A stretch of 64,000 nt of DNA from an uncultured Gammaproteobacteria bacterium (GTDB taxonomy: Bacteria; Patescibacteriota; Patescibacteriia; UBA9934). A program made the translations under genes and the position numbers. This document shows positions 21,946 to 57,860 of this stretch, in pieces (the first letter of the stretch is position 1; each line of letters starts with the position of its first letter). The notes below the pieces were generated by a model. That model was not told where the DNA came from. It did no database searches and saw only the letters and a program-made list of their open reading frames with translations. The stretch covers positions 125,440 to 189,439 of the forward strand of contig CAZTKG010000003.1 in assembly GCA_964613815.1 (NCBI GenBank), written 5' to 3'.

Positions 21946-22251
21946 TTGACGTGCAAGGGACTTGGTGATAGTCTTCGGGCGCAATGTGGAGGCCAAATGG
22001 CTTATGATAGCGGCGTCTCTCTGTGGAGAGGCTCTGGCGAGGAATACTGCATGAAGCACAAGATCTCGTTCCCGGGCATCAGCTGTCCTGACTGCCGATT
22101 CGAGATCAGGCGCAAGCTCGATCAGGAGCGCGCACTTGCCGAGAAGAAAGCGATTGTTGCCGCAGCTACTTCGGGGGCTACACGTCATCCGTTTGCGGTC
22201 GACGATCGTCAGCGTGAAGCCTGCAGCCCGGACGTTGACTCTCCTTCGTGA
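21946..22251 (+). CDS. hypothetical Cys-rich protein
   Basis: ORF with CPDC and CGG motifs. Weak support. Confidence 0.2.
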   Translation: MTCKGLGDSLRAQCGGQMAYDSGVSLWRGSGEEYCMKHKISFPGISCPDCRFEIRRKLDQERALAEKKAIVAAATSGATRHPFAVDDRQREACSPDVDSPS

Positions 22252-22344
22252 GAACCGCGTGATCGTGGTTCTTTTTTGTTTGAGAAAAAGATGACCGCGC
22301 CCGGGTTAGGGGCGCGGCTGAGAGTTGAGTCGTGTCACCACAGC

Positions 22345-23476
22345 CTAGGGCTTGGCGACGAACTCTCCGATGCGGAGGTTGAACCAGACACTGGGCCGCT
22401 TGGCATGGCTGTGCGTGATGGCGATGATGTTGCCACGGAGGTCCACGTCGGTGATGTTGCCGAGGTGGCCTCCGTACACGGCCTCGACCCACTCGTGCTC
22501 GTGGCGGTCGTAGTACATGATGCCGCCGCCGAACATGCCGCCACGGATCTCGTAGACCTCGACGTTTCTGGGGAGCTGGAGGCGCTGGCTCGGGTAGTAC
22601 TCGAGATCCTGCGTACGGGTGACGGTGCCGTTCTCGTAGGTGAGGATGTAGGACTCCCACTCGTCCTGCATGATGATGTTGGCTCCGTAGGGTGTCTGCG
22701 AGACGCCGACGACCGACCTCGCCGGGGTGGAAGCCGGGGCCGAGGGGGATGTTGGCGTCGACGGTGGCCAGAGTCTGGTAGGGCACGGTTCCGTCGGCGG
22801 CGGCCCAGCACCAGTGTCCGTCGATCTTGGCGAGGTACCGTTCTGGGGTGACATACTCGCCGTAGCCGGTGTAGATACGGAAGTACTGGCCGCCTTCGAT
22901 GTACTCAGTGGGCTCCCCACAGGGGACCTGGAAGCGGCCGGTGAAGAGGTTCAACAGGATCTCTTCGGGGTCGGTGTCGCGGGTCGCCAAGGCGTTCGGC
23001 GTGATGATGGTGCGACCGTGGTGCAAGTCGACCGCCTCGGCATGGCCGGTTCGGGGGCCCTTGTAGTACGCGATGTGCCAGTTGCCGCCCGCGTAGTACA
23101 GCATACCGTTGAAGCTGGCGGCGCCGGTGCTTGGGAGCATCGGGTAGATCGCCATGGTGTCGGTCTTGAGCAGGGGCTCCTGGACCATGCTGCCGGTCTC
23201 GCGGATGGTGACCAGCGCATCGCCTTCGGGGACGTACTGGTGCACGCCGCCTCCGGTGATGAGGAAGGTCTTTCCGTCCATGGTGACGAGGTCTTCGAAG
23301 CTGTCGTGGAGACTGAGGCTGACCGTGGTGCCGCCCGGGAGCTCGAGAGTCTCTTGGCGGACGCGACCGGGAAAGCTGACGTCGTGGATGAAGGTGCCGG
23401 CCGGCGTTTCGATGGTGTCGGCGCGGTCGAAGGGGGATGCGGCGAACGCGGTGGAAAGGGCGAGGGTCAACAGCAT
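22345..23476 (-). pseudogene. high-GC secreted protein gene split by a frameshift near 22700-22760
   Basis: The N-terminal part (signal peptide MLLTLALSTAFAAS...) reads in one frame down to about 22730. The C-terminal part (...TPYGANIIMQDEWESYILTYENGT...VAKP) continues in a second frame to the stop at 22345. The junction contains G/C homopolymer runs. Confidence 0.55.
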
Positions 23477-23530: not shown

Positions 23531-23563
23531 TTATATTAGCAGGAAAATGGGGTTTTGTCAATG
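23531..23563 (-). promoter_or_regulatory. conserved promoter block (TTGACAAAA-N-ATTTTCCTGCTAATAT) driving the frameshifted secreted-protein gene
   Basis: Minus-strand read cattgacaaaaccccattttcctgctaatataa: -35 TTGACA, 17-nt spacer, -10 TAATAT. Confidence 0.5.
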
Positions 23564-30627: not shown

Positions 30628-30659
30628 TACTATAGCGGAAAAATGTCGTTTTGTCAATA
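30628..30659 (-). promoter_or_regulatory. conserved promoter block (TTGACAAAACGACATTTTTCCGCTATAGT)
   Basis: -35 TTGACA, 17-nt spacer, -10 TATAGT, about 20 nt upstream of the paralog B start. Confidence 0.5.
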
Positions 30660-34864: not shown

Positions 34865-35932
34865 CTAAAACTGCTTCAAGAATCTAAAGTCGTTCTTGTA
34901 GAGAATTCTGATGTCGTCGATATTGAGACCTGCTCGCATCATGTTTGTGCGCTCCACTCCCCAACCGAAGGCGAATCCTGTGTATTCGTCTGGGTCGATG
35001 CCGCCAGCTTCGAGTGTTCGTGGGTGGACCATTCCTGCTCCACCGAGTTCGTGCCACCCTTCTTTGCAAACACGGCAACGTTTTCCATCCTTCTCCCCTA
35101 CCCCTTTGCAGATTGGGCACGTGATGTCGATTTCGAATGCTGGTTCCACGAAACGGAAGTGAAATGGGCGGAGGCGGATTTCTCGGTCGTGGCCGAAGTA
35201 GTTTTTGACGAAAAAGTCGATGACGCCTTTGAGGTGACTGACGGATATGTTCTTGTCGATCATGAGGCCCTCGAACTGGTGGAACATTGGGCAATGTGTT
35301 GCATCTGATTGGCGGCGGTACGTCTTGTTGATGTTGATCATGCGGATTGGGAGGTCGCGTTGTTCCATTTCGCGGACCTGGCCGTTTGAGGTGTGCGGAG
35401 TGAGGACAACCTTTCCCTTTTTGCCCTTCCAGGTTTTTGATTGATCTGTAGGGCCTGCCATGAAGAATGTCTCCCATTCGTCTCGCGCTGGGTGGTCTTT
35501 TGGCATGTTTAGGGATTCGAAGGCGTACCAGTCCCAATCAATCTCTGGGTGACGGGCGCGGACGAAGCCTAGGCGCTTGAAGATATCTGCTACTTCTTCG
35601 ATGGCCTGTGAGACGAGGTGGATACTTCCCTGGTCTGATCGTGCTCCAGGAATGGTCATGTCTACGCGTTCTGATTCTATTTTGGCGTCTTTTTCCGTGT
35701 GCTTGATGCGGTGCTCAGCCTCTTCGAATTCTTGCTGGATCTGGGCCTTTAGGGCGTTAAGCGCCTTTCCTTGCGCGGCTCGCGCTTCTGAGTCTAAGCT
35801 TGATAGCTCCTTCATGGCGGCGGCGAGTCGACCCTTTCTGCCGATGAATTCGATTCGGATGTTTTCGATGTCTTCTGCTGATTCTGCTTTGATGATTGCC
35901 GCGTGGAAGTCTTCTAGTAGGTTTTGGCTCAT
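34865..35932 (-). CDS. pheS: phenylalanine--tRNA ligase alpha subunit
   Basis: Class II motifs, with GAGMVHP...FAFGWGVER matching E. coli PheS. Contains an extra CPICKG...CRVCKEG zinc-ribbon insertion. Confidence 0.95.
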   Translation of the reverse strand: MSQNLLEDFHAAIIKAESAEDIENIRIEFIGRKGRLAAAMKELSSLDSEARAAQGKALNALKAQIQQEFEEAEHRIKHTEKDAKIESERVDMTIPGARSDQGSIHLVSQAIEEVADIFKRLGFVRARHPEIDWDWYAFESLNMPKDHPARDEWETFFMAGPTDQSKTWKGKKGKVVLTPHTSNGQVREMEQRDLPIRMININKTYRRQSDATHCPMFHQFEGLMIDKNISVSHLKGVIDFFVKNYFGHDREIRLRPFHFRFVEPAFEIDITCPICKGVGEKDGKRCRVCKEGWHELGGAGMVHPRTLEAGGIDPDEYTGFAFGWGVERTNMMRAGLNIDDIRILYKNDFRFLKQF

Positions 35933-46562: not shown

Positions 46563-47911
46563 GACTTTTTGCGACGATTGCGATTGGGCTCTTTTTGATG
46601 CCCGCGGTGGCGTTTGGGGCACTTGCTTCTGAGTGTGATGATTCGCCGCTTTGCTCTTGTGATGATTATTCTGTTCCAAATAGTGGTGTTCAGGAGTGCT
46701 GGGATGAGTGTGAAGGCAGCCTTCAGTGCACGATTGATGGAAGTATCACCTCCGTTGAATCAACCGAATGCGACCCAGATGCCGATGAAACGTCTTTTGA
46801 TTGTTATTCCGCAGCGAGTTCTGATGGAGAAGATTCAGAGGCATCGAGCACTACTGAAGAAAAGAAAGATCATGACGCGCCCAGTTTGAGTATCCATATT
46901 CCCGGATTAGACCTCTCCCCTTCCACGGCCAGCGGTTCAAGTATTGAGGTCAATTATATTGGCCAGTATGTTAATGCCCTTTACTCATGGCTGATTGGTG
47001 CCGGCTCACTTATCGCCGTCGTTGTTCTGATGGTTAGCGGTGTACAGTACATGATGGCGCGTGGAAATGCCTCGCTTGTTACCCAGGCGAAGGAACGGAT
47101 GACGAATGCCGTTATTGGGCTCGTGCTGCTCTTGGGAGCCTATGCGATTGCGAACTTCATTGATCCTGCGACGGTGAATTTTGATACGCTTAAGCTTGAC
47201 TCTATTGGTAAGATGCTTGATAAAAGTACTTCTGGAGAAGAGGGAGCTTCAGGCGGAGGGGATCAAACGAAGTGTGATGAGGTCCTCGCCAAGGCCTCGA
47301 CGGAGGGGTCCTGCCCAATTGATAACTTTATGGCGCCAGCGTCTGGCGTGGGACTGTCGTGCAATTACCACTTTAGTGATGCGGATTATAATTACAAGGA
47401 TCAGAAAAGCTTGGACTACCCAGGCATTTGGGGCACCCCCCTTCTCGCCTCGTTTGATGGAGAGGTTGAGTATGTTGAAGGAGGAGGGAGTAACCGCTGC
47501 GGTAATCAGATCAATCTCAAGGGTAGTGGTATCTCTATTATTTACTGTCATGCGAAAAACTTTGTTGATAGTCAAGGTAATATGCGTGAATCTGGAACCA
47601 AGGTTGTTCAGGGCGAAGTCCTTGGACATTTGGGCGGAGTTGCTTGCGGCGGTCAAGCAGATATTCCAAAGCATTGGAAGTATCGCGATAGAATGCTTAA
47701 TGGACCATCTGGCACGGCATGTAAAACGGTTAACTCCCTTGAGACCTGCAGTTGTCAAACTTGGCAACATAGCGGCCATACGACCGGCTCCCATGTTCAT
47801 ATTGAACTGAAATATGGCGGCAATCTCCTTACCTGCGTTGCAAATGGACTAGATACTGCTGAAGCGACAGGTGATACCGGCCAAGCCGCTCCGGTGGAGG
47901 GTGATCATTGA
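46559..47911 (+). CDS. secreted Cys-rich protein with a central hydrophobic hairpin and C-terminal M23 (LytM) peptidase domain
   Basis: Signal peptide, a Cys-rich acidic region, two adjacent hydrophobic helices, and M23 motifs HSGHTTGSHVHIE. Confidence 0.65.
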   Translation: MRLFATIAIGLFLMPAVAFGALASECDDSPLCSCDDYSVPNSGVQECWDECEGSLQCTIDGSITSVESTECDPDADETSFDCYSAASSDGEDSEASSTTEEKKDHDAPSLSIHIPGLDLSPSTASGSSIEVNYIGQYVNALYSWLIGAGSLIAVVVLMVSGVQYMMARGNASLVTQAKERMTNAVIGLVLLLGAYAIANFIDPATVNFDTLKLDSIGKMLDKSTSGEEGASGGGDQTKCDEVLAKASTEGSCPIDNFMAPASGVGLSCNYHFSDADYNYKDQKSLDYPGIWGTPLLASFDGEVEYVEGGGSNRCGNQINLKGSGISIIYCHAKNFVDSQGNMRESGTKVVQGEVLGHLGGVACGGQADIPKHWKYRDRMLNGPSGTACKTVNSLETCSCQTWQHSGHTTGSHVHIELKYGGNLLTCVANGLDTAEATGDTGQAAPVEGDH

Positions 47912-49232: not shown

Positions 49233-51301
49233 TCGAAATGGACTTCTTCAATGTATTCTTCGACGCGTTCTGATAATGATGGCCACTTTTTTAGGGTTGG
49301 GTCGTCTGTGAGAATCCATTCTGCATGGTCTTTTGCCTTGTAGAGAAGCTCTCTGTCGGCGTAGGTGCCGAGTTTGAAGGCTTCGAAGCCGGACTGCTCT
49401 GTGCCGAAGATATTTCCTGGGCCGCGGAGTTCTAGGTCCTTGTCTGCGAGCTGGAAGCCATTTTGGCACCCGACAACGGCGATGAGGCGCTTGCGAGCGA
49501 GTTCTGATAGGCGGCCGGATGGATGGAGGTAGCAGTAGCTTTGGTGGTCGCCCCGCCCTACCCTTCCTCGGAGTTGGTGTAGCTGCGCGAGACCGAAGCG
49601 TTCGGCTCCTTCGATGAACATGACGGTGGCGTTTGGGATGTCTACGCCGACCTCTACCACCGTGGTGGAGATGACCATGTCTAGTTCGCCTGAAGAGAAT
49701 TTTTCCATGATCTCGTCTTTTTCCATGGTTTTGAGCTTTCCGTGGAGAATTCCGAGCTTGTATTTTTTGAATGGGCCTTTTTTGAAGATCGTGTAGGTTT
49801 CGGTGACAGATTTTACTCCGAGCGCGTCTGATTCTTCGATGAGGGGGCAGACGACGAAGACTTGGCGGCCGGCGTCCATTTCTTCTTTGATGCGCTTGTG
49901 AGCCTGCGGTTCTTGCCCCTGTTCGACGAGGAAGGTTTCGATTTTCTTGCGGCCTGCAGGGTATTCGTCTAATAGTGATCGGTCTAGGTCGCCGTAGAGG
50001 ACGAGAGCTAGTGATCTCGGGATTGGGGTTGCGGTCATGCTGAGGAGATGGGGGATGCCGTCTTCGTCGCCTTGGCGATCTTTGAGGGCTCGGCGCTGTT
50101 TGACGCCGAAGCGGTGCTGTTCGTCGACGATCATGAGACCTAGGCGGTTGAAGAGGACGCCTTCTGAGAGGAGTGCGTGGGTTCCGATGGCTAGGTCTAT
50201 TTTTCCATCTTTTAGTGCGTCAAGCATTTGTTTTTTGGTGACCTGCTTGCCTTTGATGCGGCGCTTTGTGCGTGTGAATAGGCCTATCGTGAGCATGTCG
50301 CCGAAGATTTTTTGTAAGCCTTTTGCGTGTTGGTCGGCAAGGATTTCTGTTGGGGCGAGGAAGGCGGTTTGCCAGGTTGAAGATGCGGCGTTTACTGCTG
50401 CGAGCGCTGCGACGACGGTCTTCCCTGTTCCAACGTCCCCCTCTAGCAACCTATTCATTGGGGTTTCCTTTTCTAGATCTTGGATGATGGACCAGCTGGA
50501 TCTTTTTTGGGCATCGGTGAGTTCGAATGGAAGAGCCTTTACCGCCTTTGTGACGGCAGGTTTGTTGAATGGGATTTTTGATGATTTTTGCTTTTGGAGC
50601 GCTCGGCGGACGCGGCGGTGGAGGATTTGATGGAGGAAGAACTCGTCGAATTTAAGACGATCTAGGGCGCGTTCCTGCTTTTCTGTTGAGGATGGGAAAT
50701 GCATCTCCTTGATTGCATCGTGGAGGGGCATGAATTCCTCGGACTTGATAATGTCTTGCGGCATCCATTCTTCGACCTCTTCGATGCCTTTTGTCGCCTC
50801 CTCTGCCAGGGCTCGGCGCATTTTTTGGGTGATTGCGCCGGTAAGTTTGTAAACCGGGAGGATTCTACCGGTTTGCTTGACGCTCTGCTGCTTGCCGAGG
50901 ACTTCGTAGATTGGGTTTACGAGCGAAAGGCCGTAGCGGTCGTCTACCTTTCCTGATAGGGACACGATCACGCCTGGTTTTAGGGTTTTTGTGAGGAAGC
51001 CTTGGTGGAACCAGACGGCTTTGATGGAGCCGGTACCGTCTTCGACCATGGCTTGTGTGATGGTCATTCGCGGGTTGTTTTTGGCGCGGCGGTTTTCGAT
51101 AGTTGCGATCGCGCCTTGGATCGTAATGCGCTCCCCTGCTGATACGCTGCTGATTTCTGTCTTTTTTGAGAGATCGTCGTAACGGAATGGGAAATCTAAT
51201 AAGGCATCTCTTAGGGAGACGATGCCTAGGCGCGCGAAATCTTTGGCGCGGGCGGCGCCGATTCCTTTTGCTCTTTGGATGTTTTTGTCGAGAAGAGGCA
51301 T
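49229..51301 (-). CDS. recG: ATP-dependent DNA helicase RecG
   Basis: Wedge domain, DEAD-box helicase motifs (GDVGTGKT, DEQHRFG) and a TRG motif. Confidence 0.95.
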   Translation of the reverse strand: MPLLDKNIQRAKGIGAARAKDFARLGIVSLRDALLDFPFRYDDLSKKTEISSVSAGERITIQGAIATIENRRAKNNPRMTITQAMVEDGTGSIKAVWFHQGFLTKTLKPGVIVSLSGKVDDRYGLSLVNPIYEVLGKQQSVKQTGRILPVYKLTGAITQKMRRALAEEATKGIEEVEEWMPQDIIKSEEFMPLHDAIKEMHFPSSTEKQERALDRLKFDEFFLHQILHRRVRRALQKQKSSKIPFNKPAVTKAVKALPFELTDAQKRSSWSIIQDLEKETPMNRLLEGDVGTGKTVVAALAAVNAASSTWQTAFLAPTEILADQHAKGLQKIFGDMLTIGLFTRTKRRIKGKQVTKKQMLDALKDGKIDLAIGTHALLSEGVLFNRLGLMIVDEQHRFGVKQRRALKDRQGDEDGIPHLLSMTATPIPRSLALVLYGDLDRSLLDEYPAGRKKIETFLVEQGQEPQAHKRIKEEMDAGRQVFVVCPLIEESDALGVKSVTETYTIFKKGPFKKYKLGILHGKLKTMEKDEIMEKFSSGELDMVISTTVVEVGVDIPNATVMFIEGAERFGLAQLHQLRGRVGRGDHQSYCYLHPSGRLSELARKRLIAVVGCQNGFQLADKDLELRGPGNIFGTEQSGFEAFKLGTYADRELLYKAKDHAEWILTDDPTLKKWPSLSERVEEYIEEVHFE

Positions 51302-51352
51302 TTGATTTAGTATTTTATCTCAGTTTTTGCGAAAAACCAAGCTTGTATTGCT

Positions 51353-51400
51353 CTATCTCGACCGAAATGAGGAGATCTCTCCACGTTGGTCGAGATGGGA
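51353..51400. repeat. dispersed nested palindromic repeat, copy 5
   Basis: tATCTCGACC-gaaatga-GGAGATCTCTCC-acgtt-GGTCGAGATGG. Confidence 0.75.
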
Positions 51401-51427
51401 GCAGATTTTATCCCCACTTTATCCACG

Positions 51428-51545
51428 CTATAAACACCTTTATTCACGGGGTTGTTCACAGATTTGTGGAAAAGTTATACACATTTTGTTCACGTTGACA
51501 TCCGGTTTTTTATTTACGTGTTCAAAAAGCTTAATGATTTGCCCG
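51428..51545. promoter_or_regulatory. cluster of six DnaA-box-like 9-mers followed by an AT-rich tract (candidate oriC or DnaA-regulated promoter)
   Basis: TTATCCACG, TTATTCACG, TTGTTCACA, TTTTCCACA (reverse), TTATACACA and TTGTTCACG within 76 bp, each 7-8/9 to TTATCCACA, followed by an AT-rich segment. Confidence 0.45.
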
Positions 51546-51556
51546 GTTGACTCTGT

Positions 51557-52204
51557 GTGGCTTATTTGATAATCCTGATTGGTGACCCTGGAGGCACTTT
51601 GTTCTTTTTTTTGACGATGCTTCTCCTGTCTCTCGGCGGCGCGGTTGCCGAGACTAGTCAGGCTGTGCAGGATGCCACCACCTTCTCGCCTGAGCCACAT
51701 GTTCGCCTTATTCTGCACGGGACGCGAGCCCCTGTGGAAGGTGGCGCTGTCGGACTTTCGGGCTGGGTGATCGCTCCCGACATTGGCAATGATCCGACCA
51801 AATGGGTGACGCTTGCAGGCCTACGGGTTGTGAATGATGTCTTGAGCCTTGAGTTCCATGGTGGACTCTTGAAGGCTGGCGACGGCACCGCCCACCTTCT
51901 GGACGTTCGCTTTGGCGCAGCGCCCAAGAACAGCCGGCTTTCGCACTGGAGCAATGTTCAGCTGATCATGGATCCGAGCGGCGAAGGCGGTGGCGGACTC
52001 TACTTCTACCATCAGTACGATCTGTCGATCTGGCTTGTCGCTATTGGGCTGGAGAACGAAAATCTCTTTACACGTGAAGCTGCGGGGATTGCGACAGGGC
52101 CCCACCTCGTGATTCCGCTTGGGAGCCTTACGATCGTCATGGCGCTCCAGTTTGACATGGCTCATGCCGAATACTTCTGGACCCGCGCTGTCCTGAACCT
52201 CTGA
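51557..52204 (+). CDS. hypothetical secreted protein (moderately high GC)
   Basis: Hydrophobic N-terminus, ORF only. Confidence 0.4.
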   Translation: MAYLIILIGDPGGTLFFFLTMLLLSLGGAVAETSQAVQDATTFSPEPHVRLILHGTRAPVEGGAVGLSGWVIAPDIGNDPTKWVTLAGLRVVNDVLSLEFHGGLLKAGDGTAHLLDVRFGAAPKNSRLSHWSNVQLIMDPSGEGGGGLYFYHQYDLSIWLVAIGLENENLFTREAAGIATGPHLVIPLGSLTIVMALQFDMAHAEYFWTRAVLNL

Positions 52205-52228
52205 CCCCCTCCTGGGGTTGTTTATGGC

Positions 52229-53074
52229 TCAAGTAAAGGACTTGGAACAAGTTAGCGCGTTTGCGAGGTAATAATGCCGAGACTCAAAGAGTCTCGGCAT
52301 GTTTTGTCTTGCCTCAAGCTCTCTCACGAGGTGCGGGAGCCAGTAGGCTCTCACCTGCTGGTACGTGCGACGTATGAAACGTTTAAGGACAGACCAAATA
52401 GCTTCAATGTGGTTTGTAGGGCCAAACTCAAATTTAGAGTGGATACAGACTTCATGCTTGTAGTTAAAGAACTCATGGATGCGGTTGTAACCGCTCCATC
52501 CGTCTGTGTAGACGGTGGAACCGGTCTTCACATGCTTAAGAAGAAATCTATCTGTCGTATCTTGCTCTCTGTTATCTGTGACAAAGAGGGCGACTCTCTT
52601 TGTCCCGCGTTCATACGCACCAATGACAATGCGCTGGTTACCGCTTCTCCTTCTTCCGACAAAAGCTTCGTCTACTTCTACATCCCCAGAAAGAATCTGG
52701 AGGTGTTCGTACGGAAGATGGTACTGGAACCTTCGGTACTATCTTCTGGCTGTCGGCACACTCACTCTTGCGAGTTCGCAAGCAGCGGGCAGAGCCCGCT
52801 GCTTCTGCCAGCAGTAGAGAAGGATCCAAAACTGTGTTCATGAGAGCTTCATTCCACTAAGCCATGAGACCGACGTGAGACTAAACGGCTTCCTGCAACT
52901 CGGACACCGGAATCTGCACTCACTTCTGCGAATATTAGATGAATTGCAGCGAGGACAGCGGATGCGCTGTCCAAACACTACTTTTCTGACAAAAGCCTTG
53001 ATCTTTCTTTCATTTGGAACCTCGTTTAGAATGGACATACGGAACAGTTGGTTATTTGTTAGCTGCACTAACAT
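52229..53074 (-). mobile_element. IS1595-family (ISXO2-like) transposase gene remnant with an internal deletion / frame break
   Basis: The N-terminal zinc ribbon (CPRCNSSN...CPSCRKPFSLTS) is in one frame. The DDE / C-terminal region (VEVDEAF...TDGWSGY...TNHIEAIWSVLKR) is in another, and only ~100 nt lie between them where ~300 are expected. Confidence 0.7.
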
Positions 53075-53181
53075 TGTAACCTCTGTTCCATTTCGATTAT
53101 ACGAGCCTGTTTATTTTGGATTGACAATCTGTGTAGTTCTGATATTGTTCGCTCCTGATCGATCTTTTTCTGGAGAAAATC

Positions 53182-53622
53182 TTGCCTGCACCCCGCTCCC
53201 CGTTCCCTGATCCGAATGTGTTTACTGCCCGTCGTGGCTTTGTGAGGATCTTTGGGTTCTCTGCCTGGATTGAGGATGGGCACTGGGTCCTTTCGCATCG
53301 CTCTGGGCACACCTCTACCTCCTCCCCTACTCCGGTTCACGAGCAGATTCAGGCTTCTATTGAGGAGGACATCTCTCGTGGTCGTGGAGATGATGTCTGT
53401 GCGGTTCACGTCTCGCCCGCTACGGCTGCTCGGCTGATTCTTGAGGGAGCGATCCCCGAGACTTCGCTTGCCGCAGCTGATACGCAACGACGTGCTGGAC
53501 GTGTCCTGATTCCGGATGTGACATTTGGGACGTCGCTTCGAGTGATGCGGCTTCCGGTGGTGGTTCGGCGAGGATACATTCACGTGTTCGCGACCGTGGA
53601 TGCGCGGGAGATTATTGTGTAG
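53182..53622 (+). CDS. hypothetical protein
   Basis: ORF in a high-GC region. Weak support. Confidence 0.25.
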   Translation: MPAPRSPFPDPNVFTARRGFVRIFGFSAWIEDGHWVLSHRSGHTSTSSPTPVHEQIQASIEEDISRGRGDDVCAVHVSPATAARLILEGAIPETSLAAADTQRRAGRVLIPDVTFGTSLRVMRLPVVVRRGYIHVFATVDAREIIV

Positions 53623-53654
53623 CGTGCGCTGGCTGATGCTGGCGCTTTTTTGTT

Positions 53655-53696
53655 TGGGAAAAAGAAAGACCCCGCGCTTGGCAGGCGCGGGGCCTG
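53655..53696 (-). terminator. rho-independent terminator after the acidic lipoprotein gene
   Basis: Minus strand GGCCCCGCGCC-tgccaa-GCGCGGGGTC followed by TTTCTTTTT. Confidence 0.45.
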
Positions 53697-53733
53697 ACCG
53701 AAGGCGGAGTAGGAGACTCCCTCGATCTGATCT

Positions 53734-54427
53734 ACTGTTCCAGGTGGACGATTCGCGTGACGTCGGAGCTGTTGATCCCATTGTAGGCGATGCTCGGGTC
53801 GGCGTCGCTCTCGAATGCGGGATCCTCCAGGGCGTACAGCGAGGCCTGGATGCCCACCCTCTCCTCGGTTCCGTAGAACGCACAGGAGAGAACGAAGGAT
53901 GTCGCGCTGGCGACCTCGTGGTCGAAGAAGACGAGGTCGGCCTGGATGTCTGCCGCGATGTCGACCGGAACGATGTCGACGGAGGAGTCTCCCCCGCCCT
54001 GGATCTCGTAGAGCTCGCACCAGTGGAGGTACTCGTCCGCGTTGAAGTCGCTGTCGGACTCGACCTAGTAGACGATGCCACTTGCGGAGAATCCATCCTC
54101 CTCGGTCGTGATGGCGTCGGCGGTGAGTCGCGCTTCGTCACCAGCTCCGTAGGAGATGGTGTCCAGGACGGACTGCGGGGTCATGTAGGCTTCGACCGGG
54201 ATGACGTCGACGGGGATGACGTCTCCGGTCTCGATGATCTCCTCCATCGTGTCGCCGTCCGTGTCCTCGGAGCAGAGGTCCGGGAACTCGGCGCAGAAGT
54301 CGTCGGCAGGAGGGGTGAGGTCGGAGATCGTGGCCTCGTCTGCGGTATCGGTCTCGACGTCGGTTGGGGCGAAGCGGCAGGCGGTGAGGGTGAGGAAGGT
54401 GATGATTGCGGGGAAACGGGTGGTCAT
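53734..54427 (-). pseudogene. high-GC acidic lipoprotein gene interrupted by an in-frame TAG at 54065-54067
   Basis: Lipobox LTLTAC after a signal peptide. The reading frame continues unbroken after the amber codon (...SGIVY*VESDSDFNADEY...) to a stop at 53734. TAG is a normal stop elsewhere in the window (rpmE, gyrB). Confidence 0.55.
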
Positions 54428-54478
54428 TTGACGCTCCGTGAGGGTTTTTGAAGGAAACAGTCGTTTGACTGATGCGCG

Positions 54479-54510
54479 CATGATAGCAGAAAAATGCCTT
54501 TTTGTCAATC
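54479..54510 (-). promoter_or_regulatory. conserved promoter block (TTGACAAAAAGGCATTTTTCTGCTATCAT)
   Basis: -35 TTGACA, 17-nt spacer, -10 TATCAT, about 50 nt upstream of the lipoprotein start. Confidence 0.5.
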
Positions 54511-54570
54511 AAAATGTCTTTAAAAAGCTGTTTTTATTAGGTTTTTCTGGTTATTTTTGTTCAAAAGTAC

Positions 54571-54604
54571 TTGACAAAACTTGGTTTTTGTGCTATTGTA
54601 TAGC
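54571..54604 (+). promoter_or_regulatory. conserved promoter block, plus-strand copy (TTGACAAAACTTGGTTTTTGTGCTATTGT), divergent from the previous one
   Basis: Same block architecture, driving 54669..55061. Confidence 0.45.
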
Positions 54605-54668
54605 TATTCTTTCACACCATTCTATTCGCTTTTTAGCGAAGGAGTCCCTCAAGAATCCCTCCATTGGC

Positions 54669-55061
54669 ATGCGTATCATGCGCTACTTCGAGATCATGAT
54701 GATGCTGAGCGCTGTCACCGCAGCTCTCCTCGCCTTCGGTCCTGTGATCGAAGACGCTGAGAACACGCAGCGCGCACTGCATCAGCAGCGTGCGGAGCGG
54801 CGCGTGATCGATGAAGTCGCCATCAAGGCAGCTACCGAGTCAATCGCTACCTTCTCACGCTACTACAGCGCCTGCGAGTTCGAGGCCCTGCAGAACCAGC
54901 TGGTCGCTGTTAGCGGCGGTCGGCAGGTTACGCAACACAGCATCAAACTCATGCGGAATGCGGCACACAGTGCTCGTCTCGCTGGCGCACCTGCTAATAT
55001 CGTAGCCCTGCACCTCGACCGTGCCGGACAGCTTCACCGCTTCGCCTCCAGCCACCACTAA
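54669..55061 (+). CDS. hypothetical secreted protein (high-GC)
   Basis: Signal-peptide-like MRIMRYFEIMMMLSAVTAALLAFG. The start was moved to the internal Met. Confidence 0.4.
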   Translation: MRIMRYFEIMMMLSAVTAALLAFGPVIEDAENTQRALHQQRAERRVIDEVAIKAATESIATFSRYYSACEFEALQNQLVAVSGGRQVTQHSIKLMRNAAHSARLAGAPANIVALHLDRAGQLHRFASSHH

Positions 55062-55090
55062 CCACAAACATCAACGCATGGTACGCGAAG

Positions 55091-55396
55091 ATGCGTACCG
55101 GCGTCGTTCGAACCACTCTGCAGCGTCAGCTCCCCCACCTCACCAAGGAGTTCGAGATGGAGGTGCGCTCCGCCCTCCTTCCCGGACTCGCCGGTGATCA
55201 GAAGGCGGCGTTCTCCCGCGTTCGCCGGCTCGGCAACGACCCGGGTCGCCAGCTCGAGAACGCCAACGTTCTCGTCCGGATGGCGGCTCAGTCGGAAGAT
55301 GCCGACATGGAGCTGCTGACCGACATCGACACGCGTCGACGACGGCTCGTGCGTCTGGTTCGCCTGGCCGATGCCGGGCACCTGATCTGGCAGTAG
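55091..55396 (+). CDS. hypothetical protein (high-GC)
   Basis: ORF only. Confidence 0.25.
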   Translation: MRTGVVRTTLQRQLPHLTKEFEMEVRSALLPGLAGDQKAAFSRVRRLGNDPGRQLENANVLVRMAAQSEDADMELLTDIDTRRRRLVRLVRLADAGHLIWQ

Positions 55397-55412
55397 CCCT
55401 CGCCCTCGCCTC

Positions 55413-55450
55413 ACGGCGCAGCTTCACCGCTGCGCCGTTTTCTTTTTATT
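55413..55450. terminator. bidirectional terminator
   Basis: ggcgcagc-ttcacc-gctgcgcc followed by gttttcttttt. Confidence 0.45.
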
Positions 55451-55895
55451 CTGGCGCGTAAACTCCTATGAGCTCAGCTTTTTTGATGATTGCCCCCTCC
55501 ATTGCCTCTTCTACCTCTTTTTTTGATGCTCCCTCAGGGAGATCAAGCATTTTACTCAGTGCGTAGAGCTTGAAAAAATATCTATGTTCACGGTCGGGCG
55601 GCTTTGGGCCGGAGTAGTCCAGATACCCGCGCGTTCCCTTCCCTTTTACGCCCTCGACTTCCCAGTTTTCTGGGATGGATGTGATGTGCGGCGGGATGTT
55701 GAATACGGTCCAGTGATCCCAAACGTCTACCGGGGCGTATTCTGGGACGTCGGGGTCGTCTACGATGAGGGCTAGCGATATCGTGCCCTCTGGAATGTTT
55801 GTGATTTCTAGCGGCGGGCTGATGTCTTCTGCGAATTGGGTGTATTTTCTTGGGATTGTTTGACCTTGGTTGAATACCGGAGATGTAATTTGCAT
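55446..55895 (-). CDS. YbhB/YbcL-family phosphatidylethanolamine-binding protein (PEBP)
   Basis: DPDVP..AP...HW and HRYFFKLYAL motifs of bacterial PEBPs. The start was moved to MQITS. Confidence 0.75.
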   Translation of the reverse strand: MQITSPVFNQGQTIPRKYTQFAEDISPPLEITNIPEGTISLALIVDDPDVPEYAPVDVWDHWTVFNIPPHITSIPENWEVEGVKGKGTRGYLDYSGPKPPDREHRYFFKLYALSKMLDLPEGASKKEVEEAMEGAIIKKAELIGVYAPE

Positions 55896-55906
55896 AAAAT
55901 GTCTTA

Positions 55907-55937
55907 AAATCCCCCGCCCTTTCAGGCGGGGGATTTG
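55907..55937. terminator. rho-independent terminator
   Basis: aaaatcccccgcc-ctttca-ggcgggggattt. Confidence 0.5.
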
Positions 55938-55957
55938 TGAATGGATTTTGGTTCTAT

Positions 55958-56275
55958 TTATTTTTTCACCCCTCTCTTTCGCTTTTGCGTGAAGTAGTAG
56001 ACAAGCGCAGCGGGTCCGGAGAGGAAGATGATGAGCGCGATCCACATTCCCTTTTCTTTTTCTTGGTTTTGGATGGCGTCTATGAGCATCCAGAGCCAGA
56101 AGGCTACGAGCGCGAGCCCGATAAGGACTCCGAGGATCGGGATGATGACGAGCCAGCCGGGGACATCTGGGCATGGGACTTCTTCGCCGTTTACTCTGCA
56201 GGTTGCGGCGAGAGCGAACTTGGAGCTTGCCAGGAAGAGCGCGAGGGATGTGAGGGAGGTTTTTAAGGTGTTCAT
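55958..56275 (-). CDS. small membrane protein with PLDc_N-like C-terminal segment
   Basis: Signal peptide plus a WMLIDAI...KGMWIALIIFLSGPAALVYYF motif. Confidence 0.45.
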   Translation of the reverse strand: MNTLKTSLTSLALFLASSKFALAATCRVNGEEVPCPDVPGWLVIIPILGVLIGLALVAFWLWMLIDAIQNQEKEKGMWIALIIFLSGPAALVYYFTQKRKRGVKK

Positions 56276-56370
56276 GGTACGTGGTTAAAAATTGGTTTTA
56301 TTTTAGCATTTTTCGTGCCTTTGTTCGAATCCCCTTTCCATGCAAAAAGACTCCACGAGTGGAGTCTTTT

Positions 56371-56460
<90 letters not shown>

Positions 56461-56502
56461 GTGTTTGATTTTCAATACCCCCTTAGCTCGGATGGCGCCG
56501 GA

Positions 56503-56600
56503 AAAATGCTCTGTAATCGGTTTTCTGAGAGCAGCGCAGTAAGGCGTATAGACAATACGTCGTCGAGCAGCGCAGCAGAAAAACGATTACAGAGTATTTT
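56503..56600. repeat. long imperfect inverted repeat (25-nt arms) in the tRNA-Arg/tRNA-Ser spacer
   Basis: AAAATGCTCTGTAATCGGTTTTCTG ... CAGAAAAACGATTACAGAGTATTTT (2 mismatches), with the inner direct repeat gagcagcgcag x2. Confidence 0.7.
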
Positions 56601-56613
56601 ACCAAGCCAGCCG

Positions 56614-56690
56614 TGGCGCGCTCGGCAGGGCTCGAACCTGCGACCTCTGGCTCCGCAAGCCAACGCTCTATCCAACTGAGCTACGAGCGC
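56614..56690 (-). tRNA. tRNA-Arg (anticodon read as GCG)
   Basis: Cloverleaf GCGCTCG...GGTTCGAGCCC...CGAGCGC-G-CCA with A20 in the D-loop and anticodon loop TTGCGGA. Confidence 0.75.
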
Positions 56691-56695
56691 ACGGT

Positions 56696-57208
56696 TCAGA
56701 ATTTATACAGTCTTCGCATGTGATCTGTCAAGGTTTCTTCCTCTCTGTCGAGGTTCTCGAAAACGAAGTTTAGCAAGGTTTCGCGGAGGATATTTGGGTC
56801 CATGTCTTCGACGGGAATATGGAGAAGCGGCTTCCACATGCGGAGAAAGTCGATGTACAGAATTTTGGCCACTCCTGGCTGGTAAACAATGGAGAAGTCT
56901 TTCATTTCTTCGTACGGGAACCAGTGGTCGTCGTAGACGATGCCGGCATCTGTGACAATAATGTTGATACGCTCTGGCTTTTTTGAGTGGTCAAGAATGA
57001 TGAGGAGCCCCATCATGAGGACAATGGTTGCAAAAAGGAAGTTCGCCGAGGCGATTGCGTATACTAAGAATAGACCGCCAATGATTCCGGCGGTGATATA
57101 CCACCTGCGTGAATGGTCGTGAGGTGGACGATCCCAGGTCTCCCAGGCGAGTAGCGCTTCGCCGACATCGATCTCTTCCATCTCCGGTTCCTTGGTTTCT
57201 TTTGCCAT
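56696..57208 (-). CDS. hypothetical membrane protein
   Basis: Two TM helices, ORF only. Confidence 0.45.
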   Translation of the reverse strand: MAKETKEPEMEEIDVGEALLAWETWDRPPHDHSRRWYITAGIIGGLFLVYAIASANFLFATIVLMMGLLIILDHSKKPERINIIVTDAGIVYDDHWFPYEEMKDFSIVYQPGVAKILYIDFLRMWKPLLHIPVEDMDPNILRETLLNFVFENLDREEETLTDHMRRLYKF

Positions 57209-57281
57209 GCCTGCAGTATACCAGAGTTAGGACTTGAAATCAGGAGCGGTTTAGGATATAACTGTGCTACGTTTAATGAAT

Positions 57282-57371
57282 GGAGAGGTGCCGGAGCGGT
57301 CGAACGGGGCACCCTGCTAAGGTGTTAGGTCTTCACGGGCCTCGAGGGTTCGAATCCCTCCCTCTCCGCCA
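57282..57371 (+). tRNA. tRNA-Ser (anticodon GCT)
   Basis: Cloverleaf with anticodon loop CTGCTAA, long variable arm, GGTTCGAATCC T-arm and a 3' CCA. Confidence 0.85.
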
Positions 57372-57375
57372 GGAA

Positions 57376-57405
57376 AAGGACTTCGCTTTTGCGGAGTCTT
57401 TTTTG
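57376..57405 (+). terminator. rho-independent terminator after tRNA-Ser(GCT)
   Basis: aaaggacttcgc-tttt-gcggagtctttttt. Confidence 0.55.
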
Positions 57406-57437
57406 TTTGGAATAAAACAACGCAGTACTTGACTGCG

Positions 57438-57860
57438 TTACTGTTTCGGACCGGTGCCCCCTGGGAAGATTCGGTCCCCCGCATCCCCGCGGAACGTGAT
57501 CTCGCAAGGTTGGTGATTGATCTGGAACGTGATCGTACCATCTGTTGATCCAGGCACCGGAAATCGGCGAATGCGGATCATGGCCGTTGTGACCTCTGCG
57601 CGTGCGATGTGTTTGGCGGTGAGAATGCCCTCGAGGAACATTCGAACGGCGATTTCTGGCGATACTGTGACCGTTCTGACTCGCTCGCTTCTGATCCCTG
57701 TGATCGCAGCTCGAAGCTGACTACTGACCGGCTCTGGATCAAGCGTGATACTCTCCCCTGACGGCGTTTCGAGACGAAATTCGCGACCACATTCGGTGAA
57801 TCCGTGATATCCATAGAATGAGGCACTTAGGATGACGATTGGGCGTCCTGATCTTCGCAC
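57438..57860 (-). CDS. hypothetical protein
   Basis: ORF only. Confidence 0.35.
   Translation of the reverse strand: MRRSGRPIVILSASFYGYHGFTECGREFRLETPSGESITLDPEPVSSQLRAAITGIRSERVRTVTVSPEIAVRMFLEGILTAKHIARAEVTTAMIRIRRFPVPGSTDGTITFQINHQPCEITFRGDAGDRIFPGGTGPKQ

Follow-up and report, generated by a model that had tools for sequence, protein, structure and literature searches.

The segment between positions 52226 and 53107 of the window (the whole 64-kb stretch of DNA analysed here) carries, on the minus strand, an insertion sequence (IS) of the IS1595 family that is 882 bp long and whose limits were set by its inverted repeats and by 12 relatives with aligned ends. A single transposase gene is enclosed by the terminal inverted repeats (TIRs), as is characteristic of the family. 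Conceptual translation of this gene, from an ATG at position 53074 to a terminal TGA at 52229-52231 on the minus strand, gave one frame of 281 codons (52229-53074) with two nonsense codons inside. As most homologues begin at the position corresponding to M13, the true start of the transposase is probably this methionine, located at 53038. Both TIRs and a flanking direct repeat are present; judged from these features the element is structurally complete, and the word remnant, under which a previous reading made without database searches (the sequence-only reading) had described it, overstates the damage.

The left inverted repeat (IRL; GGCTCGTATAATCGAAATGGAACA) lies upstream of the transposase gene at 53084-53107 and pairs with the right one (IRR) at 52226-52249, which reads GGCTCAAGTAAAGGACTTGGAACA inward on the plus strand; both belong to the minus-strand element, and the position of IRR is also backed by the relatives. 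The two 24-nt arms are 71% complementary and both begin with GGCTC. When compared with the closest relative, L015 (Ga0233429_1037829), the first 28 nt of IRL matched at 26 of 28 positions and the end bases of IRR at 24 of 28, and a TGGAACAG box was common to most of the terminal repeats of the clade. The stop codon of the transposase falls inside IRR, the last codons being TCC TTT ACT TGA (SFT*), and the C-terminal SFT was also conserved in the alignment of the closest homologues. Abutting the two ends of the element there is a perfect direct repeat of 7 bp, TGTTTAT (52219-52225 and 53108-53114, unstranded), a putative target site duplication (TSD) that is one base below the 8-bp norm; in the relatives, the duplications measured 8 bp (L006, L028 and L030) or 9 bp (L015, L005 and L017). 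The sequence-only reading had proposed a search for TIRs and 8-bp duplications around the gene: the former were found, as the two 24-nt arms, but the direct repeat is of 7 bp.

The element begins 21 nt past the stop codon of ORF 51557-52204. On its other side, 13 nt separate it from the -35 hexamer of a promoter-like site (53121-53148) located ahead of ORF 53182-53622. Both flanking ORFs run antisense to it. The insertion would have been in minus-strand orientation and would have targeted the short intergenic spacer that separates the stop of the first of these ORFs from the promoter-like site of the second, with duplication of 7 bp (TGTTTAT) at a pre-insertion site that would have read ...CCTGGGGTTGTTTATTTTGGATTGACA... 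The 146-aa product of ORF 53182-53622 (plus strand) is an orphan, with a distant paralogue encoded at 57534-57815 on the minus strand (33% over 98 aa, E = 1.7e-6).

A strong hairpin, terminator-like on the plus strand, was identified by its fold energy at 52263-52312, inside the 3' end of the transposase gene (-29 kcal/mol, z = -6.8); it contains a perfect 12-bp palindrome at 52274-52300. This structure is not conserved: it is absent from the 12 relatives, whose fold energies were -5 to -21 kcal/mol. In the window copy it goes along with altered residues at conserved positions, P266R among them. It may have been perfected from a quasi-palindrome, exapted as a terminator, or both. A T-rich run comes after the hairpin on the plus strand, about 70 nt past the stop codon of ORF215.

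Membership in the IS1595 family

Family models were run on the conceptual protein with the stops masked. The Pfam model PF12762 (DDE_Tnp_IS1595, the ISXO2-like DDE domain) matched residues 128-258 with 72.6 bits (cutoff 27, E = 4.5e-20), the match spanning profile positions 2-153 of 153, and PF12760 (Zn_ribbon_IS1595) matched residues 20-62 with 27.1 bits (cutoff 25.4). The whole protein scored 93.6 bits against the NCBIfam model NF033547 (transpos_IS1595; cutoff 75), and the next best models in this profile search, those of IS1, ISL3 and IS66, were all far under their own cutoffs. These results agree with the sequence-only reading, which had assigned the gene to an IS1595-family, ISXO2-like transposase and had recognized an N-terminal zinc ribbon and a C-terminal DDE region in it. 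Every sequence and structure criterion that we tested places the element in the IS1595 family.

Elements of this family contain one transposase gene coding for a zinc finger and a DDE domain, and their TSD is usually of 8 bp (PMC8101967). The window element shares with them the zinc ribbon and the DDE domain within one gene, the TIRs starting with GG and the short target duplication, and differs from the usual member in its 7-bp direct repeat and in its two nonsense codons. Plasmid-annotated transposases of the family are only 23-30% identical to the one described here. The DDEK+ER4 signature and the GGnnnnTAT ends of the window element resemble the pattern of the ISNwi1 subgroup in the ISfinder table, a likeness that we mention only as a lead.

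The catalytic signature of the window element (DEAFVG...VYTDGWSGY...HIEAIWSVLK...RELEARQN) is also similar to that of ISApl4, of the IS1016 subgroup (DESYFG...VYTD...HINGIENFWSQAK...ECEFRFN; PMC12561309), and IS1016-type elements give rise to direct repeats of 7-9 bp (PMC12561309). However, an N-terminal zinc finger is found in all IS1595 subgroups except IS1016 (PMC8101967), whose members are of about 700 bp, whereas the element in the window has a zinc ribbon and a length of 882 bp; an assignment to the IS1016 group was rejected on account of the zinc ribbon. In Moraxella, single-copy IS1016-type elements (IS1595 family) have been described in which tnp is truncated by early stop codons (PMC12561309).

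Two nonsense codons in a single frame

Translation from 53074 to 52229 revealed exactly two in-frame stops and no frameshifts. The first stop is a TGA at codon 79 (52838-52840, minus strand), located by translation and by alignment with homologues, and the second is a TAG at codon 112 (52739-52741, minus strand), located by protein and DNA alignment; the uninterrupted transposase ORF of an active autonomous IS is therefore lacking. The gene had already been regarded as disrupted and non-functional, which is consistent with the two stops, but the lesion had been described as a deletion of the HTH/linker region, with the zinc ribbon out of frame with the DDE domain and about 100 nt between the two. 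The list of ORFs in the window could give that impression, as two ORFs appear there on the minus strand (52838-53074 and 52229-52531), interrupted by sequence without a listed ORF. Both halves and the intervening stretch are nevertheless in one frame, which runs through all 281 codons, and the sequence taken as a residual gap corresponds to the 99 nt, or 33 codons, that separate the two stops. These codons are the linker itself (TQFWILLYCWQKQRALPAACELARVSVPTARR) and align with intact homologues residue for residue, without gaps. Moreover, the 882 bp of the element compare with 878-885 bp in the relatives, the alignment with L015 has at most 6 gap columns, and both TIRs are in place. We consider that a deleted remnant has practically no chance of being the correct description; the annotation is hence corrected to a pair of nonsense codons.

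The probable origin of the two stops could be traced in the alignments. Codon 112 is occupied by tryptophan in all 23 aligned homologous proteins and by TGG in the 12 aligned DNA relatives; because every aligned relative agrees, we read this lesion as a single G-to-A transition that would have turned TGG into TAG. The column of codon 79 is variable among homologues (Y, W, L, P or F), and the ancestral codon of the window copy at this position is accordingly uncertain. Two relatives, L024 and P0004, have TGG there, one G-to-A step from TGA, and this stop too would have derived from a Trp codon by such a transition.

Beyond these two codons the protein is well preserved. All 38 invariant columns of the homologue alignment are kept in the window transposase, and they include the zinc-ribbon cysteines C40, C43, C57 and C60, the catalytic residues D135, D191 and E224 and the E252/R256 motif. 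K231 is also present; at least 90% of the aligned sequences agree in this column. The protein deviates at 7 highly conserved columns. Most of the closer homologues do so at 1-5, with 9 in P0012, and the number for the window copy fits some relaxed constraint on it. The only product to be expected from the gene is a zinc-ribbon fragment of 66-78 aa, devoid of the catalytic domain. The two stops would thus abolish transposition, and the element would be unable to move itself.

Could the stops be errors of sequencing or assembly in an element that is really intact? Apart from this being a general possibility, nothing speaks in its favor. Thirteen loci fetched from JGI, ENA and Logan assemblies, which represent about nine sample or run accessions, agreed in every base (100% identity) over the region 51301-55500, and the changes are substitutions instead of the homopolymer indels typical of sequencing error. 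As 13 of 13 fetched loci are identical, both stops are real, and the probability left to an artifact is negligible. The sequence-only reading had stated that a single continuous ORF recovered after correction of a sequencing indel would indicate an intact IS; the frame turned out to be continuous without any correction, but with genuine stops, and hence this is not an intact IS.

A related possibility is that an active element makes its transposase in spite of the stops, which would be read through or recoded by way of an alternative genetic code, by a suppressor tRNA or in programmed readthrough. In its favor, Trp codons were probably the ones replaced at both sites (in code 4, UGA likewise stands for Trp), and the rest of the frame shows no damage, the residues for catalysis and zinc binding being all in place. 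On the other hand, two host genes are terminated by these codons: the one encoding PheS, with a canonical C-terminus, by TAG (34865-34867), and the pilin/M23 gene, located upstream of RadA, by TGA (47909-47911). An alternative code was rejected on these grounds. Furthermore, the three stop codons terminate the long ORFs of the window about equally (25 TAA, 23 TAG and 22 TGA). The host uses the standard code, in which TAG and TGA are normal stops. No suppressor tRNA was found in the window. A recoding conserved in the clade was likewise discarded, given that the relatives have TGG at codon 112 and that internal stops occur in only 2 of 90 related loci, at other sites. Two different stop codons would need to be recoded, and the copy of the element is at one locus only. 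An active transposase produced in this way therefore appears very improbable. A blind scan of the window for cases of ORF, stop and ORF in one frame returned 120 instances, a noise too high for this search to be of use.

A single locus in GC-rich surroundings

When the element was used as a query in blastn and tblastn searches of the 64-kb window, it matched only itself. Exact look-ups of two ORFs within it, the 66-aa zinc-ribbon ORF and a 189-aa antisense ORF, led to 3 and 14 contigs, respectively; the 14 contigs with identical sequence correspond to 8 non-redundant places, and each non-redundant place from either look-up had the arrangement RecG - ORF215 - IS - ORF146. Based on this evidence, which comprises 64 kb of the genome plus the contigs carrying the identical sequence, the element is at one locus, at which the population has it fixed. 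Should the rest of the genome contain an intact copy, this one could be mobilised in trans.

These data, together with the state of the reading frame, lead us to consider it very likely that the locus holds a complete, single-copy IS1595-family IS whose gene was inactivated by two nonsense point mutations alone, and which is now immobile and fixed. After the insertion, the transposase gene would have been inactivated by the TGA at codon 79 and the change of TGG to TAG at codon 112, and by nothing else; the dead, immobile IS is fixed at its only locus in the population.

Fixation might also be explained if the zinc-ribbon product of 66-78 aa had been kept as something useful, for instance a DNA-binding regulator or an inhibitor of incoming related elements, the locus being domesticated. 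The N-terminal ORF is intact and retains all four cysteines, the element is invariant across samples, and the gene caller of one assembly did predict the 66-aa product. But a neutral dead element is also expected to become fixed in a near-clonal population, all copies are identical, which leaves no variation in which to test for selection, and the 60 matches included no conspicuous case of a homologue truncated in this way. We regard domestication as improbable, and the reading of a dead IS, fixed at one locus, as the one that best accounts for the data.

The element is easily missed in databases. Public assemblies call the 189-aa ORF antisense to the transposase (52274-52843, plus strand; L002:8459-9028 and L095:3001-3570); the 66-aa zinc-ribbon ORF is called in some cases only. 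The antisense ORF had no Pfam match and is a spurious call; as it is called in place of the transposase, the IS is invisible in public annotation.

The sequence-only reading had placed the element directly beside a high-GC island and had taken this as the mark of a likely hotspot of horizontal acquisition. It is true that the GC content of 53108-55445 is raised (0.584 vs a window mean of 0.515, with an SD of 0.032 for 1-kb windows), and so is the GC3 of two ORFs in this segment (0.77-0.79 vs 0.55-0.61 for RecG and PEBP). The neighboring ORFs are also orphans: none of six had a Pfam match, and the one searched for homologues, a lipoprotein-like frame, had none at E <= 0.001. Nonetheless, the ORF on the left flank (51557-52204) is also GC-rich (0.571), and so the element lies inside a GC-rich stretch and not at its edge. 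Patches of equal or higher GC exist elsewhere in the window, at 22-24 kb (up to 0.65) and at 29.5-30.5 kb (0.60). Horizontal acquisition of 53108-55445 is possible, but the element provides no firm evidence for a hotspot, and no integrase was found for the GC-rich stretch. Three tRNA genes (Ser-TGA, Arg-GCG and Ser-GCT) are located at 56371-57371, about 0.9 kb to the right of the GC-rich stretch. A tRNA-linked island found no support: the direct-repeat search over 51000-57500 detected no att-like copy of a tRNA end.

Some further characteristics of these patches deserve mention. An extended promoter-like motif, TTGACAAAAnnnCATTTTnCnGCTA, for which no occurrence is expected by chance, is present three times in the window, always on the minus strand (23537-23561, 30633-30657 and 54484-54508). 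Each copy heads one GC-rich patch, and ORFs with signal peptides follow at least two of them; as the motif heads all three, the patches look like one class of resident genes, a point that speaks against an island. The lipoprotein-like frame (53732-54427, minus strand) starts with a signal peptide and a Cys (MTTRFPAIITFLTLTAC...) and lies between a promoter-like site (54508-54480) and a terminator-like one (53695-53667). It has an in-frame TAG at 54065-54067, after which the frame stays open for 110 more codons with equally high GC3, and it may be a second nonsense-mutated gene beside the IS. In another patch, a GC-rich ORF for a secreted protein (22178-23476 and 22345-22920, minus strand) has an apparent frame shift near 22,700-22,750, with a plausible N-terminal part of 250 aa in one frame and a plausible C-terminal part of about 125 aa in another, a possible case of a frameshifted gene.

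Relatives from Patescibacteria bins

A homologue search over 5.8 billion proteins returned 60 homologues; the best of them, of 267-297 aa, are 67-68% identical to the window transposase, with query coverages of 96-100%. Ninety related loci were fetched from genome and metagenome collections, and the ends of the element could be delimited in 12. These 12 relatives are 878-885 bp long, and their ends align with those of the window element. The relatives from uncultured bacteria (L015 and P0001-P0003; L005-L014) are 53-68% identical to it at the protein level. Like it, they measure about 880 bp, have a collinear gene whose stop codon falls within IRR, and end in TIRs of the form GGC....TGGAACAG.

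In contrast to the window copy, with its two stops and 7-bp repeat, the relatives have uninterrupted ORFs and duplications of 8-9 bp. The frame over residues 13-275 was uninterrupted in 88 of the 90 related loci, and the stops in the other two were at different positions. The window copy further differs in its extra changes at conserved columns and in its 12-bp palindrome, which is unique to it.

A scan of the genome collections located the relatives mostly in bins of Patescibacteria, Parcubacteria, Saccharibacteria and Kerfeldbacteria, with elements L005-L014 in MAGs of the first three groups. The window element belongs to a clade known mainly from metagenome bins of the Patescibacteria (CPR). 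Two of the relatives, L006 (CAYOMV010000003.1) and L009 (CAYPSC010000078.1), are in bins labelled as uncultured Gammaproteobacteria, a placement that could be due to a binning error or to cross-phylum transfer. Our literature search found nothing on IS1595 together with Patescibacteria.

The ends of the clade show another peculiarity. In most members the left end has only a -10-like element, TA[GT]AA[TC], at nt 7-12 (for example L030:2757-3641, L006:2966-3845 and L018:2934-3812), and the right end has a TTGAC[AG] that faces outward (nt 7-12 counted from the terminus), inside which the stop codon of the transposase is found. It is tempting to speculate that a circular or tandem intermediate, by bringing the two ends together about 5 bp apart, would create a full promoter, and such a junction promoter would in turn imply copy-out/paste-in transposition. 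To our knowledge, this mode of transposition with a junction promoter has no demonstration for IS1595. The features of a subgroup may be proposed, namely a length close to 880 bp, a zinc ribbon together with DDE-K/E-x3-R, TIRs of the form GGC....TGGAACAG and duplications of 8-9 bp. Taken jointly, the notion of an undescribed, Patescibacteria-associated IS1595 subgroup that moves by copy-out/paste-in through a junction promoter is doubtful, and we put it forward only as a tentative proposal.

In summary, our analysis documents the ends and the target duplication of an element whose IS1595 clade is frequent in metagenome bins of Patescibacteria and has received little annotation. As a fixed and immobile IS, the copy described here is usable as a stable strain marker for its population.
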